From positions 1-30,437 of the IMG/VR virus record IMGVR_UViG_3300020045_002023: a DNA stretch of 30,437 nt; one strand, given 5' to 3'. A program made the position numbers and the translations under genes. Source of the DNA: a virus (Duplodnaviria > Caudoviricetes). Shown here in pieces: positions 1,449-30,437 of the stretch. Numbering within the stretch: position 1 is the stretch's first letter; the number at the start of each line of letters is the position of its first letter. The notes under the pieces are model-generated. The model ran no database searches. It was not told where the DNA came from and saw only the letters and a list, made by a program, of their open reading frames with translations.

Positions 1449-2069
1449 ATGGATTCGCAAATGAATGATAGCAAAAAACGCACGTTTGTCGATATTGAAA
1501 CTGGCGAAGAAATTGAACTTTTTGAAGATATAAGAATAGATAAAGAAGGCAATCAAGAAATTCGTTTAGTTTCAGAGTACTTACAAACGCCAAAATTGGC
1601 GCCAGCACCAACTTCGGTTGGCGTGGACACCAATTTGGAAGCCAAGAAGCTCAAAAATCGGGCGGTGCAGTGGATGAAAGCCAACATGTCGGCGGTGTTT
1701 GCAAGACTGGGCAAGGCCAACATTTCAGGCCGTGCACTGCGCGTCAATATGGCCCTTGGTGTTGAAGCCCACTGGCATGGCTATGTCACAGCTTCACTGG
1801 AAAAGATCGCCACCATGACGGGCATTGATAAGGCCGATGTGTCCAGAGCAATCAAAGAGCTGGAAGAAGCAGACGCGCTTGTCACTATCAAGCGCGGCCA
1901 ATACCGGCTAAACCCGGCCCTGTACTGGGCAGGATCAGACGTAGCGCAACAGAAAGCCCTTGGTGAGTATTCCTACCAGCGCGGAAAGGTTGCAGCAAAA
2001 GAGAAGGCAAAAGCCAAAGCAGCGAAGGCCAAAAAGCCAAAGCTCCGGTTGGTGCATTCTCAAAATTAA
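1449..2069 (+). CDS. RepL-like winged-helix DNA-binding protein with a basic C-terminal tail
   Basis: VDIETGE N-terminal motif, HTH SLEKIATMTGIDKADVSRAIKELEE, and YRLNPALYWAG as in the plasmid RepL family. The start could be 1449 or 1461. Confidence 0.65.
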   Translation: MDSQMNDSKKRTFVDIETGEEIELFEDIRIDKEGNQEIRLVSEYLQTPKLAPAPTSVGVDTNLEAKKLKNRAVQWMKANMSAVFARLGKANISGRALRVNMALGVEAHWHGYVTASLEKIATMTGIDKADVSRAIKELEEADALVTIKRGQYRLNPALYWAGSDVAQQKALGEYSYQRGKVAAKEKAKAKAAKAKKPKLRLVHSQN

Positions 2070-2871: not shown

Positions 2872-3176
2872 TGATCGACACCATGAAAAAGGCCATTAAA
2901 CCAGCCCAAAGGGGCAATGTCTCCGCTGATCCTGTTGCCGATAAAGTCCAGATCAACCAGACCGGCATGACGGTAACCGTTATCGGTGGCGTTGTTGGCT
3001 TGGCAACGGCGATGGGGTGGATAGATGAAAACACCGTGCCGAAAGATGCCATCCCCTATATTGCTCTGCTTGTCAGCGTTGGCCCTGCTTGGTTCATGTG
3101 GTGGAAGTCCTCAATTTCATCTCCCCGCGTCGGAATGTTCGACGTCCGTAAGCCTGACAGCGGCGAAGCTGAATAA
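2871..3176 (+). CDS. Two-TM membrane protein of the lysis cassette (holin- or spanin-like)
   Basis: TAATG coupling to the endolysin and an AGGAGG RBS. Hydrophobic segments VTVIGGVVGLATAMGWI and IPYIALLVSVGPAWFMWW. Confidence 0.6.
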   Translation: MIDTMKKAIKPAQRGNVSADPVADKVQINQTGMTVTVIGGVVGLATAMGWIDENTVPKDAIPYIALLVSVGPAWFMWWKSSISSPRVGMFDVRKPDSGEAE

Positions 3177-3232: not shown

Positions 3233-3266
3233 AAAGCCCGCGCTAGGCGGGCTGTGAGCGGGCTTT
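3233..3266. terminator. Hairpin between convergent genes, probable terminator of the minus-strand moron
   Basis: AAAGCCCGC can pair with either GCGGGCT (3247-3253) or GCGGGCTTT (3258-3266). Confidence 0.6.
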
Positions 3267-3422
3267 AGCGGCCCTGAATATGGCCCCGTCAATCATCAGG
3301 GCGAACAGTTCAGGCCGCGACTTGTGCCAGTCGTAGAGCGTTTGCCGAGGCACTCCGGACAGGAGCACCAAGGCGTCAACGCCGGATAGTCCGGCGCTTT
3401 TGCATTGTTGTGAGGGGGTCAT
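3243..3422 (-). CDS. Small HTH protein (59 aa), candidate autorepressor of the moron (Aca-like role)
   Basis: MTPSQQCKSAGL...LSGVPRQTLYDWHK HTH pattern. ATGA overlap with the upstream gene. Confidence 0.7.
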   Translation of the reverse strand: MTPSQQCKSAGLSGVDALVLLSGVPRQTLYDWHKSRPELFALMIDGAIFRAAKARSQPA

Positions 3423-3715
3423 GCTATTTCGTACCCATCGATTTCCCAATTTATTGACCCGCCATCACCCGTTTCGGCAATGATGTCGTCTTGCTCGTTG
3501 CTGGTGTAGTAGTAGGCGGTCAAAGTAACGGTATCGCCGTCTTTGTCCTCGCAGGAAACAGACGCAGACCATTCGCACCAGCTATCATTTTGGCAGGCAC
3601 CGTTATAGCCAACCCTGTTGGTTGGCTCGCAGTTTTCGCGCTCAACTCTTTCAACTGCTGCAAGACCAACAATTGCAATTGCTGCATCTCTGTTCAGATC
3701 GCCTTTTGTAGTCAT
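3419..3715 (-). CDS. Small acidic protein (98 aa), candidate anti-defence protein
   Basis: GAGAGG RBS before ATG 3715. Hand count gives 20 D/E versus 6 K/R. First gene behind a dedicated promoter. Confidence 0.7.
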   Translation of the reverse strand: MTTKGDLNRDAAIAIVGLAAVERVERENCEPTNRVGYNGACQNDSWCEWSASVSCEDKDGDTVTLTAYYYTSNEQDDIIAETGDGGSINWEIDGYEIA

Positions 3716-3764
3716 TTTCTTTTCCTCTCTAGGCTTTGGGTTCATTCCCTCTGCTCTTGGAGCA

Positions 3765-3793
3765 AATATAGTACGGCATGCCGACACTTGCAA
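3765..3793 (-). promoter_or_regulatory. Sigma70 promoter of the moron with a palindromic operator candidate in the spacer
   Basis: Minus strand reads TTGCAA, 17 bp (gtgtCGGCATGCCGtac), TATATT. Perfect palindrome CGGCATGCCG at 3774-3783. Confidence 0.8.
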
Positions 3794-3841
3794 GCTGCCA
3801 ATATACGATATGCGGATAAATCCGACGAACGGTAGGTTCTC

Positions 3842-4099
3842 ATGAAATATTTAACCATCATCAAGCTGGTTGTATCCCTATTGCCTGTGCTGATCGAGGC
3901 GATCAAGGCAGTTGAGGCAGCTATCCCTGGGAGAGACAAGGGAGAAATTAAACTTGCTGCTGTCCGAGGAGTCCTTGAAGGCGTCTATGGTACGGCAACG
4001 GATCTGGGTGTTACTTTCGCCGAGGCTTGGCCCGCTATCGCAAAAGCTGCGGCTGCGCTGGTATTGGCATTCAACACCGTAGGCGAGTTTCAGAAGTGA
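3842..4099 (+). CDS. Hydrophobic/amphipathic phage protein, possibly holin-like
   Basis: 85 aa with hydrophobic N- and C-terminal helices. Resumes the late operon after the moron. Confidence 0.6.
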   Translation: MKYLTIIKLVVSLLPVLIEAIKAVEAAIPGRDKGEIKLAAVRGVLEGVYGTATDLGVTFAEAWPAIAKAAAALVLAFNTVGEFQK

Positions 4100-19895: not shown

Positions 19896-20527
19896 TAAGG
19901 CGGCGAGCTTCAATCATTGGCAACGGTCGAAATATGATTCGGCTTATTGGCTATGTGGCTGACGCTGAGGTTTCGTCGCTAACGCTGCCTGCGGGGATCG
20001 TGGAAAGCGATATTGTTGTTGTGGTGGGCGGGTATTTAGGGGGCACATCACCTGCTACGCCAACAGACTACACCAGCCTAAAAACACAAACGGCCACATC
20101 TATCGGCGCGAGAATGTCCAGAAAGATAATGGGGCCAACGCCAGACACCACAGTATCAGGGCTTGATGCCACCGATACCATCCACATTGCGGCCATTTTT
20201 AGAAATGTGGACACCACAACGCCAATGGACGCCACTACTCTGTCTAACTCAGGCAACTTCAATCCAGCCAACCCAGGCTCAATCACCACAGTCTCGGATG
20301 GAAGCCTGATTGTTATTGCCGCCATGATTAACCATGACGCGGCGATCACCCCGCCATCTGGGTACAGCGTTATTGCCGGGAGTCTCCGTGTGGGCGCCCA
20401 AGAGCCATACCTTGTGATGGCGTACAACCCCTATCCCGTATCTCCCGGCGCTCATGATCCAGGGGCGTTTTCTGACCCTGGAAACCTAGCTAATTTGACG
20501 TTTACCGCAGCCCTACGGAGGGCGTAA
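19892..20527 (+). CDS. Fibre-associated beta-rich protein, possible receptor-binding tip
   Basis: ATGA and TAATG coupling. Thr/Ser/Gly/Pro-rich beta-sandwich-like sequence. Confidence 0.6.
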   Translation: MIRRRASIIGNGRNMIRLIGYVADAEVSSLTLPAGIVESDIVVVVGGYLGGTSPATPTDYTSLKTQTATSIGARMSRKIMGPTPDTTVSGLDATDTIHIAAIFRNVDTTTPMDATTLSNSGNFNPANPGSITTVSDGSLIVIAAMINHDAAITPPSGYSVIAGSLRVGAQEPYLVMAYNPYPVSPGAHDPGAFSDPGNLANLTFTAALRRA

Positions 20528-25350: not shown

Positions 25351-27530
25351 TGGCTAAATATTCATTTGTTGACGTAGCGCCAAAGGCTTCCCGGTTTTCG
25401 TTTGTTGATGATGAAGCCAAAACGCCGGATTCACAGCCATTCATGGAGCGCGTTACCGGCGCATTCAAGATGGGCATGGAAGCATCCACGAACTACATCC
25501 GCAATGCGGAGCGGTTTCTTGCTGGCACCGAGGAAGATGATGACGCCATTGCTTCATCCATCGTTGCGGATATGGCAGAGCGCCAGCAATTCGGCAAGAC
25601 GGCTGGACAGAAGAAACTCGACGATGCCATGCAGGAACTTAACAAGGTTAAGCGCGGGCAATCGTTTGTTGATGATGTGGGCGAGTTTGTAGACAAGACG
25701 CCTGACATGCCCTTTATGCCCGGAGTTAAGACGGGCGCAAAGGCGGCGGTAGAGTTTGCCAGATCATTGCCCGAAATATGGGACGTGGTTAAAACCGCCG
25801 GAGAGAACCCGCTTGATACGGTTGTTTCCAGTGCCGAGTCTGCTGCTAATTCCTTGTTTGCCCTTGGTGGCGGTACGGCTGGCGGCGCTGCGGGTGCTGC
25901 TATTGGCGGAACTGCTGGCCTGCTAACCACCAAGTCGGCGGCTGGCGCGGCGGCTGGTGCAAAAGTGGGCGCGAAGGTTGGCGGCCAAGCGGGTATGTTT
26001 GGCACATCGGCAGCCATTGAGTTTGGCGCGTCCTTGCAAGAAGAAGTCATTGACGAACTGGAAAGGCGCGGCACGGCTCCAACCACCGAGAATATCAAGG
26101 CACTACTGAAAGAGCCTGAATTCAGAACGGAAGCCCTGAAGGTTGCAGCAGCCAAAGGCGTAGTGACTCCGGCAACAGACTTGGCCATGTTTAGGCTGTC
26201 TGGTGGCCTTGGCGCCGTGCCTGGGGTTAAAGGCAAGCTGGCGGCTCTTGCGTCAGAAGCCATCTCAGAACCGCTATCAGAAGGCACAGGACAGGCCGCA
26301 CAAGTCGCCGTATCAAGTGATCCTAACAGGCAGATTGATAGGTCAGAGCTGGCCGCTGAAGCCATCTATGCGCTTCCCACGTCTGCCGGTAGCGCAGCCG
26401 CAGCAACATTGTTTGAAAAGGTGGTTGGCGACAAGAAAACCGCGCGGCCAGACACTCCAACAGCCAAGCAATTCCAAGACGCCGAGGCGCAACTCAATTC
26501 CCTTGATCAGCAATACCAGGAAGCCACTGCAACCGGCGACACTGAGCTTGCCGACGCACTAAAGGCCCGCTTCGACACCCTAAAAACCCAATACGAAACC
26601 TTCCGCAAAGCCAAAGACCCGAATTATGTCGGCACCCTGAATCCGAAACAGGCAATTGACGAGGCCGGGGATCAGGCGCTTGCCGCTGGCGGTGATCGGC
26701 TGGACGCTGAAATTGCCAAGTCACACACAGCGATTGACGTTATTCCTGCCGCCAGAACGGCGCAAGACCTTGGCGTTACCTTTCCTGACCCGCAGAGCTA
26801 TGCCGTTGAAGGACTGAAAGCAGGGCAAGTCCCCGATCAACGCCATTCCGCCAGCATGGAAGGCATAGACGGCCTGATTATCGCCGCTCGCCGCATGGGA
26901 TTTGCCGACGAAGAAGCGAAGCTGGCCACGGCCAAAAGGCTGTTTACCCAATACAAGGATGCGCTTGATTCTGGCCAAGGCGAGATGGCGGATCGCTATC
27001 TACAGCAGGGCAACAAGCTGTACCGGGATGCCACTGGCGACAATGGCCCGCTTGCGCCTGTCCGTTCGCAATTCCCCGTCCCGTATGTGTTCCAGGGCGA
27101 AGTCTCTGGATCAACCAATATCGTCCCGTCTACTCGTCCCAATTTCACCACGTCCGATGCCGTTGATGTTGATGGCATGGCATGGGAACCTACCCGGCAG
27201 AACCGCCTTGAAAACCAATCACAGGGCAAGCTGACAACCGATGGCACTATCTACGGACAGCCGCCTGCCCGCGAATTCACGCCACCACCCACCACCTATG
27301 AAGGCGTAGGCCGCAACGCTGTAGATCGCACCGCAGCCCGTCCTGTTGGCATTGAAGCGCAGCCCGGTGTCCAGGGCCGATCAATATCAACCCGCGATCT
27401 GATGCAGCCTGCAACCCTGTGGACAGGCGGAATGCCAGAAGGCTACAAGACCGAGAACGGCGCAAAACTGGCCCGCCTGCTCAAGCGGTGCCCGGACGCC
27501 AGAAAGGGCTTTGTCCATGGCGGATTTTAG
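25350..27530 (+). CDS. Large internal virion/ejection protein, probably truncated at a junction near 27470
   Basis: TAATG coupling and a Gly/Ala-rich membrane-like segment. The C-terminus collides with an opposite-strand ORF (144-bp overlap). Confidence 0.7.
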   Translation: MAKYSFVDVAPKASRFSFVDDEAKTPDSQPFMERVTGAFKMGMEASTNYIRNAERFLAGTEEDDDAIASSIVADMAERQQFGKTAGQKKLDDAMQELNKVKRGQSFVDDVGEFVDKTPDMPFMPGVKTGAKAAVEFARSLPEIWDVVKTAGENPLDTVVSSAESAANSLFALGGGTAGGAAGAAIGGTAGLLTTKSAAGAAAGAKVGAKVGGQAGMFGTSAAIEFGASLQEEVIDELERRGTAPTTENIKALLKEPEFRTEALKVAAAKGVVTPATDLAMFRLSGGLGAVPGVKGKLAALASEAISEPLSEGTGQAAQVAVSSDPNRQIDRSELAAEAIYALPTSAGSAAAATLFEKVVGDKKTARPDTPTAKQFQDAEAQLNSLDQQYQEATATGDTELADALKARFDTLKTQYETFRKAKDPNYVGTLNPKQAIDEAGDQALAAGGDRLDAEIAKSHTAIDVIPAARTAQDLGVTFPDPQSYAVEGLKAGQVPDQRHSASMEGIDGLIIAARRMGFADEEAKLATAKRLFTQYKDALDSGQGEMADRYLQQGNKLYRDATGDNGPLAPVRSQFPVPYVFQGEVSGSTNIVPSTRPNFTTSDAVDVDGMAWEPTRQNRLENQSQGKLTTDGTIYGQPPAREFTPPPTTYEGVGRNAVDRTAARPVGIEAQPGVQGRSISTRDLMQPATLWTGGMPEGYKTENGAKLARLLKRCPDARKGFVHGGF

Positions 27531-28490
27531 GGATTGCGGGGTATGGGTGTTGGTGGGCTTGGCTGAAACGGACGGCTTTGCCTGCGAAGCTCGGTACTTG
27601 ACAAGATCGCGATCTGAGTATATCTTTTTGCCATACCCCTGTCTGAAGTCGTTGACCCTGGGCAATTGGAGCCCAGAAGTGCGACCGAAGGCAGGGGTTC
27701 TTTTTTCATCCCCATACAGAAACAAGCCATCCTTTGCCCATCTCATGTAAGGTTTTTTCTGGTTTGCATCGTAAGCATTTACCAGCAGATGGGCATCCAT
27801 GCCACCAACGTCGGCGTTAGGCTCTAGTACCATCAGGATAGGCGCACCATTAACCGTTTCAGGCGATACCAGCACAAGCCTGCCCTCAACCGTGTCTGAC
27901 TCAAAAACCGCAACAGGGTTCTCAAGCCATTCAGGGATTTGCTTCCAATGCTCCGCTTTCAGCTTGTGGTTGATTCTGCTGGCTTTGACTTTTGATTCGG
28001 CGACATGGACAGGCTGATCGCCATATCCCAACATATCAAGAACGTCTGACTTGTCGAGAACGCGAACGCCTATCCGCTCTGAAGGCTGGCCGCTATACAG
28101 ACCATCTATTCTGGATTCATAACTGGCCTGTGTTGACGGGCTGCGAGAGAAAAGCCCATCCTGCTTACCCTGCAACTTCCCAGTATCGCCCTGATCCTGA
28201 TTATCCAGCCCGAAGTAATCCCGCTCACGATCCGCTTGGGCTTTGGTGTCGGGCTTGGCTTTCTTCTCGGCTTTCTCTCTTGCTTGGCGGTCGGTTTCGG
28301 TTTCTTGGTCTAGCGCAAACCCGCCCAACATCCCCTCAACTTTGGTAATCTGCTCATCTACTGCCTGAATGGAAGCGGCATTTCTCGATACTCCTTCATC
28401 CCGCAACGCTTTGGCCCGTGAAATAATGGCGTCTTTATCTTCTTCATCAAGGGAAGAACCGGCTTTCTTCAAGCACGTTGTTAATGACAT
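27387..28490 (-). CDS. N-terminal part of a large polyvalent-type virion protein with a MuF-C-like (BECR-type) domain, probably truncated
   Basis: Motifs L..LG..D.PV......V......H.L......QIPE.LENPVAVF.S.T....LV.........P....LEP.........L..AY resemble MuF-C-type domains. GGAG RBS and overlap with the upstream minus-strand gene. Confidence 0.65.
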   Translation of the reverse strand: MSLTTCLKKAGSSLDEEDKDAIISRAKALRDEGVSRNAASIQAVDEQITKVEGMLGGFALDQETETDRQAREKAEKKAKPDTKAQADRERDYFGLDNQDQGDTGKLQGKQDGLFSRSPSTQASYESRIDGLYSGQPSERIGVRVLDKSDVLDMLGYGDQPVHVAESKVKASRINHKLKAEHWKQIPEWLENPVAVFESDTVEGRLVLVSPETVNGAPILMVLEPNADVGGMDAHLLVNAYDANQKKPYMRWAKDGLFLYGDEKRTPAFGRTSGLQLPRVNDFRQGYGKKIYSDRDLVKYRASQAKPSVSAKPTNTHTPQSLKSAMDKALSGVRAPLEQAGQFCAVLGLVAFWHSACPQGCRLHQIAG

Positions 28491-29050
28491 TCGTCTAAGG
28501 CTCCACTGAATATAACAGCCAATATTGCATTTAAGGTGTCAGTATCTTCTTCGTCTAAAATACGGCGGGCATCTCTGAAACTTTGCTCTGCTTTGTTTTT
28601 CTTCTTTGCGGATAGTCTTGTTGTCCATTCTTCGCCACCGCCGCCAGCGGTATCCTCAACCACAACAGCGCCAACCGTCAGGGCAACAGTACCACTCACC
28701 TGATCCTGCGCCGAATCAACACCCACAAGGCTGTAATTCTGCGCTAGCGCGGCAGTATCGCTGGCTTGGGCCTGTGCGCTATCGGTACTAGCCAGCGCGT
28801 TAGACGCCGTTGCGGTTGCCGTATCACTTGTTTGTGATTGCGTAGAATCGACAACAGCAAGAACGCTGTTCTCGGTTAGAGAAGCGGTGTCACTGGCCTG
28901 TGATTGAGAGGAATCCGTAACGCTGACGGCATAGTGCTGCGTCAGTGCTGCCGTGTCGCTTGTCTGGGGCTGCTGGCTATCCGTTGAGACTAATGGCCCG
29001 CCACCGGAGAGCAGCGGCGCTCCCACTAATGGCGGGAATAGCCAGCTCAT
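28481..29050 (-). CDS. Protein with ~5 copies of a 22-aa DSxQxQxSDTxxL repeat
   Basis: Repeats read directly from the translation. GAGGT RBS. Confidence 0.75.
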   Translation of the reverse strand: MSWLFPPLVGAPLLSGGGPLVSTDSQQPQTSDTAALTQHYAVSVTDSSQSQASDTASLTENSVLAVVDSTQSQTSDTATATASNALASTDSAQAQASDTAALAQNYSLVGVDSAQDQVSGTVALTVGAVVVEDTAGGGGEEWTTRLSAKKKNKAEQSFRDARRILDEEDTDTLNAILAVIFSGALDECH

Positions 29051-29053
29051 TGA

Positions 29054-29392
29054 TTAGACCTCTGAGGCAGGGTCTGGTATACCTGATGCGTCCCTCTCGG
29101 CGGCACAGGCAAGGTACAAGCTGTGAAGAAAAACATAGACTTGCCCGTGTGTAGCCGTTTGGCCGGTAGGAAGATCAGTAGCAGGATCAACAATCTCAAA
29201 GGTTGCAGATGGGTCAATGAACTCTTTTGATATGCTGCCTACAGGCGCATTGATTCTCCTACCATCCGACAGGTCAGTCAAATCCTCCTCGTGGAACACA
29301 ATTGTCTTGTTTCCAACAGCAGGGTTCCGCGCCTCAACTTTATAAGCCCGACGCCGCTTCTCACCTGTAACACTCTCACTCATGTAGCTCAC
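29054..29392 (-). CDS. Hypothetical protein, possible fibre-assembly protein
   Basis: GTG start in a GTGA overlap with the upstream stop. DP.T..PTG.T.T...VYV.LHSLYL..A..RD motif. Confidence 0.65.
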   Translation of the reverse strand: MSYMSESVTGEKRRRAYKVEARNPAVGNKTIVFHEEDLTDLSDGRRINAPVGSISKEFIDPSATFEIVDPATDLPTGQTATHGQVYVFLHSLYLACAAERDASGIPDPASEV

Positions 29393-29724
29393 GATACTGT
29401 CCTCAATGACCAACCGATAGATCGGTCGGTTCCTGCTATTTTATCCACGGACACTTCCCATCCTTCACCAACAATCAGTGATGGCGTGACCAGTGGCCCA
29501 GCCTGCACGCCAGCGACAGTGCATTGAAACGTCACCCGCTCCACGGCATTGATTTTCTCATAGACTTTCACGAGATATTCTTCGGCTGCTGTCAGAGCGG
29601 CGAAATCAATCCAACACTGCATCATGCAGTCAGCAGTCTGCGAAGTCTTTGCTGTTGAGACAGATGCCAAGAAGTACTCGGTGGTTCCGATGGTGGCGCT
29701 GCCTGTTGTGATCGTAATTGCCAT
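29389..29724 (-). CDS. Small beta-rich virion accessory-like protein
   Basis: 111 aa, with TAATG and GTGA coupling. Confidence 0.65.
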   Translation of the reverse strand: MAITITTGSATIGTTEYFLASVSTAKTSQTADCMMQCWIDFAALTAAEEYLVKVYEKINAVERVTFQCTVAGVQAGPLVTPSLIVGEGWEVSVDKIAGTDRSIGWSLRTVS

Positions 29725-30437
29725 TATGCTGCTACTCCATAGGCTGCGACTTGTAAGGCGGTGTCAAGCGCACCACTGCACTGCGCTCTTGCGTAAATGG
29801 TTGATCCGGATGGGACACGACAGTAGCCTGGGGATATTGGCTGCTTTACAGCATAGCCACCAGAGGAGGTGAAAAACTCCTGCTCAAAGAACGGAACTAC
29901 ATCAGTGCCATCACCATACCCAAGCTCTATAAAATATGAGTGGTTTGGCATAGATGCATCTCCACTGGCTAACTGTGCCCCCATCTCCCAGTAGAAGCAC
30001 TCTCTAGTCGTTGTTCCGAGACTGGTCCACGCACCTTCACTTGTCGTGCCGGGAGTGATGACAGTGCCCACACTTCCTGATGTAATTCCAATGGTTTCTA
30101 CGGCTGTTCCGACAGAGCACATTGCAGGATTAGCCGGGGCGCAATAGGCTATCCAGTGTATTCGCGGGGTCGCACTTGCACTGGAAGATGAGATAGTCCT
30201 GAAACCTATAGTCGCTCCAGCAGGAATGAAGATGGGAAGATAGAATCCAGTTACAATATCCGCCCGATAATGAGGCATGTGCCCCCACAACGCCCTATCT
30301 ACAATAGTGGTGAAGGACGTACCGCCCGCAACATCAATACCAAGATCCGACGCTACTGTGGTGCTGGTTGTGTTTAATGCCCCCGCTGAGCCTGAGAAGT
30401 AAATCCCATAACAGTCATGTGTTAATGCTGAGCCTAC
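29724..30437 (-). CDS. Beta-rich virion accessory-like protein with an internal domain duplication (5' partial)
   Basis: The frame is open to the window end (VGSALTHDCYGIYF...). Two similar halves end LPIFIPAGATIGFR and YCRVPSGSTIYAR. Confidence 0.7.
   Translation of the reverse strand, partial: VGSALTHDCYGIYFSGSAGALNTTSTTVASDLGIDVAGGTSFTTIVDRALWGHMPHYRADIVTGFYLPIFIPAGATIGFRTISSSSASATPRIHWIAYCAPANPAMCSVGTAVETIGITSGSVGTVITPGTTSEGAWTSLGTTTRECFYWEMGAQLASGDASMPNHSYFIELGYGDGTDVVPFFEQEFFTSSGGYAVKQPISPGYCRVPSGSTIYARAQCSGALDTALQVAAYGVAA

Follow-up and report, generated by a model that had tools for sequence, protein, structure and literature searches.

An acr-aca-like cassette in the late region of a tailed phage: a candidate acidic defence inhibitor and its predicted HTH autorepressor

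The late region of a tailed phage carries, on the strand opposite to its late genes, a two-gene cassette that is probably a separately promoted, inserted operon of the acr-aca type, coding for an acidic inhibitor of bacterial defence and a coupled HTH protein that represses its own synthesis. The cargo is likely to act against some defence system, as judged by the genes with which relatives of the two proteins are associated.

Results

Organization and setting of the cassette

The window, i.e. the whole stretch of 30,437 nucleotides that was analysed, is identical with the viral record, whose completeness is estimated at 57%. It comprises a tailed-phage late region with a Q-like antiterminator, GH108 endolysin, terminases, SU10-type portal and adaptor, and capsid. 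The cassette occupies, on the minus strand, a gap of 665 nt located 3′ of the lysis genes, between plus-strand open reading frames that end at 3176 and start at 3842. In the order of its transcription it consists of:

3804..3816, no strand assigned, operator-like site O2 (TACG-ATATG-CGGA on the plus strand), upstream of the -35 box
3788..3793, minus strand, -35 box TTGCAA (promoter scan)
3772..3784, no strand assigned, operator-like site O1 (TACG-GCATG-CCGA on the plus strand), in the promoter spacer at the position of the 13-bp repeat of the HTH family
3765..3770, minus strand, -10 box TATATT (promoter scan; spacer of 17)
3753..3763, minus strand, small hairpin of 4 pairs at the predicted mRNA 5′ end (leader folding z -1.3)
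3724..3728, minus strand, ribosome-binding site AGAGG (GAGG), 8 nt 5′ of the ATG at 3715
3419..3715, minus strand, gene for the acidic protein of 98 aa, unnamed family, candidate defence inhibitor (ORF, family searches)
3243..3422, minus strand, gene for the HTH protein of 59 aa, predicted autorepressor with recognition-helix residues Q27 and D31 (ORF, PHROG match)
3235..3253, minus strand, GC-rich hairpin of 7 pairs with the HTH stop codon in its loop, possible weak terminator

A sequence-only reading of this DNA had described such a reverse unit, and its promoter parts, ribosome-binding site, acidic 98-aa frame (20 D/E, 6 K/R) and 59-aa HTH frame joined to it by an ATGA overlap were all found as it had placed them; O1 and O2 were absent from it and are new here. 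The promoter, said to be near consensus, keeps its boxes and spacing (TTGCAA-17-TATATT, 9 of 12 consensus matches, the sole match between 2800 and 4300) and loses its distinction from chance, since shuffled sequences yield 1.2 such sites against the one observed. Likewise the closing hairpin is present, and as a terminator it would be weak at best: the U tail is short, no terminator was called and the folding is no better than in shuffles (z -0.7).

O1 is imperfect, with two of four outer pairs, and includes the palindrome CGGCATGCCG. It has 10 of 13 letters in common with O2, from which it is separated by 32 bp, and such likeness on its own is seen in 5.5% of shuffles. The exact 13-mer common to the two sites occurs nowhere else in the window; the loose operator pattern, counted window-wide, is not enriched (34 versus 26 expected). 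A perfect TACG-N5-CGTA at 20514-20526, directly 5′ of the ATG at 20527, may be due to chance or may be a remote site for the HTH protein.

Insertion of the cassette is supported by three distant relatives of the gene at 3842 (42-61% identity), none of which has a reverse cassette upstream. In all three the preceding genes run in the same direction and resemble lysis or membrane genes, a judgement made mostly by eye, apart from an endolysin that was matched by tblastn. The search for relatives of the frame at 2820 found none. The position of the cassette raises the question of whether its main role might be to regulate the late/lysis region, either because the sites cover a rightward promoter or by antisense damping: CCGACA (3781-3786)-17-TACGAT (3804-3809), picked by eye on the plus strand, overlaps both O1 and O2, and transcription of the cassette converges on the lysis genes. 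We consider this most improbable, as the rightward promoter-like sequence before the gene at 3842 reaches only 8 of 12 consensus matches and was passed over by the promoter scan, the three relatives found for that gene do without the cassette, and both cassette families occur at many unrelated genomic positions.

Two other parts of the window drew attention. A RepL/HTH_36-like gene of the replication-initiator type (1449-2069, plus strand; Pfam E 4e-8), possibly a second insert, separates the Q-like antiterminator from the lysis genes, and the DNA there is locally richer in AT. A string of reverse-strand genes fills the end of the window (27387-30290, minus strand), and in one of them (27387-28490, minus strand) Pfam recognises a MuF-C-terminal domain (E 1e-19), a module found in phage polyvalent proteins.

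The HTH family and its operator

The HTH protein matches PHROG 409, 'transcriptional regulator' (E 2.5e-5), and no Pfam or NCBIfam model. Its profile retrieved no Aca structure from the PDB up to E 1, and no homology to the named Aca1-Aca14 was detected in PDB, Pfam and NCBIfam, libraries in which not every Aca family is represented. A word-index search with the HTH protein alone as the query matched only itself. Three motifs of the family were found in no paper text, nor in the text of the supplements of AcaFinder (PMC9765179) and PMC13551039, and literature searches gave no title or abstract that could be linked to the family; an unnamed predicted Aca family in picture-only supplements or external HMM sets could contain the protein.

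GenBank yielded relatives in 23 phage records, of which 13 belong to Vibrio phages, and 12 regions from the 23 records were examined; IMG/VR provided five relatives at first and then the best 80 of 99 loci. The set used for the operator analysis comprised 91 loci: the best 80 of 99, one from the first IMG/VR search, eight annotated loci, locus L060 and the window. Removal of duplicates and of L135, which lacks the helix motif, left 78 rows, 64 of which had a promoter within 1 kb.

In 45 of these 64 promoters, drawn from the best 80 of 99 loci and the others named above, the 13-mer located 0-2 nt 5′ of the -10 box showed at least three of four symmetric outer pairs (21.6% in shuffled spacers), and all four pairs were symmetric in 22 (2.3% in shuffled spacers). 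Half of the family promoters compared (23 of 46) have a second copy of the repeat further upstream, beyond the -35 box, against 10% in shuffles.

The sequence of the repeat follows two variable residues of the helix motif x-x-x-[Q/R]-T-L-x-[N/D]-W, namely Q/R and the penultimate N/D. Rows with D have the inner letters CG (CG-N5-CG) in 15 of 17 cases, the remainder being one AA and one other, and rows with N have AA/TT (AA-N5-TT) in 39 of 45, with one CG and five others; two rows carry another residue at this position. Among the 45 symmetric rows, G2/C12 on both arms accompanies R in 15 of 15 and Q in 0 of 26, the window being excluded from this count because of its two outer pairs. The two rules are separate: the pairing of R with G holds whether the penultimate residue is N or D, and that of D with CG holds whether the other position is Q, R or S. 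Both rules were formulated once the data had been inspected, and the Fisher values take no account of kinship between relatives. On a tree calculated with both residues masked, which is based on 46 columns only and has many open forks, the D rows are scattered over at least five places, and the row that is sister to the window is of the N/TAAA type (support 98/94).

The HTH protein of the window is of the D type and two CG-type sites are found at its promoter. The sole other Q/D row in the set, L070, has the operator TACG-N5-CGTT, close to both O1 and O2. The covariation of operator and helix, together with the CG-type sites next to a D-type protein, makes an Aca-style autorepressor very likely, and we predict with high confidence that the protein binds O1 and O2 and represses its own operon. 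Autorepression through inverted repeats in the promoter, as the sequence-only reading had proposed, thus gains strong support from this covariation. By the definition of an Aca, the small HTH gene is the last of a promoter-led operon of small genes, and the promoter inverted repeat is conserved and matched to its regulator computationally.

Genes upstream of the HTH relatives

Homologues of the HTH protein had been expected to stand behind variable small genes, and this is what was found: the 58 upstream frames adjacent to the HTH gene in 58 loci fall into 53 clusters, and all are at most 150 aa long (median 70 aa). Their charge is mixed, with pI below 5 in 20 of 58 and above 8 in 17 of 58.

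The further expectation that known acr or anti-restriction genes would be among them was borne out in part. Pfam recognised one Lar-like gene of the anti-restriction type among 81 frames (L109, where it precedes the HTH gene; E 1.8e-6 and 1.4e-8), and no Acr model matched in Pfam (81 frames) or NCBIfam (72 scanned). The upstream gene of L018 agrees with AcrIF18.1* in 18 of 29 N-terminal residues and in a 6-of-9 motif when compared by eye with a fragment of supplementary file 5 of PMC7648647, a likeness that carries no E-value, searches having given no phage match, one unnamed plasmid match and three unnamed relatives. The first seven residues of the L019 upstream product are those of AcrIF20.1, again by eye (from the same part of PMC7648647 supplementary file 5). 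The link of the HTH family to validated Acrs thus appears real-looking but thin, and the mixed pI and few named inhibitors suggest that the HTH may mark early accessory operons generally.

Five small genes ahead of HTH relatives code for strongly acidic proteins (L086:1322-1504, L094:845-1120, L101:1208-1504, L105:1305-1475 and L122:98-271); they have no library match and are further inhibitor candidates. Two acidic HTH-upstream genes had suggested a likeness to AcrIC7/AcrIE8, for which no PDB match was found.

The acidic protein

The first protein of the cassette has a pI of 4.05. Its C-terminal half, described earlier as rich in YYY and W, does contain YYY and one further Y in residues 50-98, and a single W. 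The family comprises 77 close matches, including the window protein itself, and 361 clusters at 50% identity; among members shorter than 130 aa the pI is below 5 in 208 of 212. Residues C29, T32, R34, E48, Y69, W90 and Y95 are near-invariant, a pattern that might point to a binding or catalytic site instead of DNA mimicry. Some members (L152:2001-2489, P0094 and P0174) appear by eye to carry a short basic or RHH-like extension at one end, which suggests a built-in regulator.

No match to the protein was obtained in Pfam, NCBIfam, PDB sequences, GenBank phages or plasmids, or the ESM Atlas, and PHROGs gave scattered single weak matches only. The earlier remark that the protein was not recognised as a named Acr agrees with these searches, which gave no library name to either cassette protein and no sequence match to named Acrs, many of which the libraries lack. 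Its AlphaFold model (pLDDT 85) begins with two helices, continues with a long two-stranded hairpin and a further helix, and ends in a strand. Foldseek against PDB and BFVD found no match at E 0.001 and no Acr was matched by fold, which does not prove that the fold is new. The proposal of a DNA-mimic anti-CRISPR accordingly found no counterpart among Acrs in sequence or fold, and many of the HTH-linked genes code for basic proteins.

The top matches of a wide fold search were RelE/ParE-type chains (best Z 4.0, rmsd 2.9, 62 aligned), and gene order and coupling also fit a toxin-antitoxin module of the HigBA/MqsRA order, in which a RelE/ParE-like toxin would be followed by an HTH antitoxin; some of the downstream HTH proteins weakly match MqsA/HipB-type models, below the cut-off. 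Ribosome-cutting RelE toxins are basic proteins, unlike the acidic product of the window, and a Z of 4.0 lies below the noise level stated for the tool. A toxin-antitoxin pair is very unlikely because the two families are not fixed partners: among 69 acidic and 98 HTH loci (redundant ones included) they occur together only in the window and in L060, where the window's HTH family again lies downstream of an acidic gene, each family has many other partners and the acidic gene is often partnerless. This outcome bears on the sequence-only reading as well, for which toxin-antitoxin behaviour would have counted against counter-defence; fixed cognate pairing was not seen.

Loci of the acidic family

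The neighbourhoods of the acidic family were sampled in 50 non-redundant loci. For promoters, 39 upstream regions were used (38 relatives with enough upstream DNA and the window), with seven duplicates, six contig-edge loci and six later-found loci left out. A strict promoter was present within 185 nt upstream of the acidic gene in 15 of 39 regions against 7.1% of control windows, and 10 of these 15 promoters contained a palindrome against 28% of controls. In the leaders (promoter to start codon) of L002, L005, L007, L011, L012, L058 and L062, short hairpins and common GC-rich motifs recur by eye, and they recall the Aca1/Aca2 RNA motifs.

Library-supported HTH/RHH-like genes follow the acidic gene in L006, L011, L012, L047, L059, L063 and L157; RHH/HTH-like genes are seen by eye in about 15 further loci and none in several, and many contigs end too early for a downstream partner to be judged. 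The most telling locus is L011 (2839-4029), a compact candidate acr operon. Its promoter contains a palindrome with 9-bp arms and leads into the acidic gene, after which come a fusion of RHH and AcrIF1-like domains, a gene of 102 aa and, last, an HTH gene. The fusion matches the N-terminal RHH of AcrIF25 (E 4.5e-12) and, in its second part, AcrIF1 (PDB E 0.001; PF20829 E 7e-4, at 20.2 bits below the cut-off of 30.5). These matches are weak and concordant, and L011 is the only one of the 50 non-redundant loci in which a recognisable Acr domain adjoins the acidic gene. The third gene may resemble the C-terminal part of AcrIC6, and the genes preceding the acidic one are presumably of the Mu-type gpF/gpG kind, which we take to be the usual acr site of Mu-like phages. 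In L063 an AcrIF25-type RHH protein stands alone after the acidic gene (E 1.2e-11).

Other neighbours of acidic genes include a DarT1-associated NADAR antitoxin (L055:2305-2934, E 4e-78), a MutS N-terminal-like domain (L004:2512-2997) and a RadC/JAB gene (L047:1485-1970).

Counter-defence cargo, as claimed before, is therefore backed by association only, through the AcrIF1-like domain, the two AcrIF25-type RHH modules, the Lar-like gene and the AcrIF18-like gene. The same loci leave some room for a different role, in which the HTH protein would still be an autorepressor and the acidic protein an early host-takeover or superinfection-exclusion factor: the genes linked to the HTH are mostly unnamed and of mixed charge, several acidic loci lie inside longer early gene strings with no adjacent regulator, and an Acr neighbour was met once in 50 loci. 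We regard this as unlikely, though well worth keeping in mind, given that acidic genes directly adjoin the AcrIF1-like gene and the AcrIF25-type RHH modules, that the family is uniformly acidic, and that the unit is inserted and led by a promoter of its own.

Discussion

In the defence-inhibitor reading the host sigma-70 polymerase would transcribe the cassette as soon as DNA enters the cell, and the acidic protein would be made in a burst and bind a defence complex. The HTH protein, translated from the same mRNA via the ATGA overlap, would dimerise on O1 and O2, thereby shutting the cassette promoter and also sparing the oppositely transcribed late operon. The single likeliest target would be type I CRISPR (Cascade/Cas3), given the evidence of L011 and the fact that many inhibitors of type I systems are acidic (PMC7913775), followed by restriction or another system that binds nucleic acids. 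Many genes in Aca-regulated operons are not acr genes (PMC13551039), so non-CRISPR targets are in sum as likely, and an anti-CRISPR function specifically is a serious possibility that we would stop short of calling probable. More tentatively still, the acidic protein may be the founder of a widespread new anti-CRISPR family whose fold differs from those of solved Acrs, and the HTH protein may represent a new Aca family in which two residues predict the operator and which marks dozens of small genes. If so, unrelated small genes in marine and environmental phages would become candidate defence inhibitors.

The acidic family, with its 361 clusters and at least one member inside a candidate acr operon, offers a ready lead for defence panels. 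The HTH protein, through its association with no fewer than 53 unrelated families of small cargo genes, almost all of them unnamed, provides a handle for guilt-by-association searches. The two-residue link of HTH and operator is a natural, directly testable recognition code, and it suggests that phages may diversify their repressors to escape silencing by a resident relative.

The architecture is already known, and both families appear to be unnamed in the libraries and literature searched. Sections of PMC12658196 and PMC13551039 describe acr-aca operons with an inverted repeat overlapping the core promoter and often a second site upstream. With those controlled by Aca1, Aca2, Aca7, Aca10 and Aca11 the cassette shares a strong promoter, small cargo, a small HTH gene in the last position, and the repeat over the core promoter with its second upstream copy; it differs in the 13-bp 4-N5-4 operator that varies with two residues, in the few HTH-linked cargo genes recognisable as inhibitors and in the HTH profile, which matches no Aca structure in the PDB (E up to 1). 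HigBA/MqsRA pairs have the same gene order and a RelE-like topology at noise level, whereas the window genes lack a fixed partner and the first protein is acidic. AcrIF2* and most AcrIC proteins, the latter described in part of PMC7913775 as mostly acidic and blocking DNA binding, are small and acidic like the window protein, to which they have no detectable homology and whose invariant residue core suggests a defined binding site. A further comparison is with the AcrIF1/AcrIF25 loci, where the N-terminal RHH of AcrIF25 has been proposed, in a section of PMC13551039, as a likely built-in regulator: a relative of the acidic gene directly precedes an RHH-AcrIF1-like fusion, and the acidic protein itself resembles neither AcrIF1 nor AcrIF25 in sequence and has no fold match.
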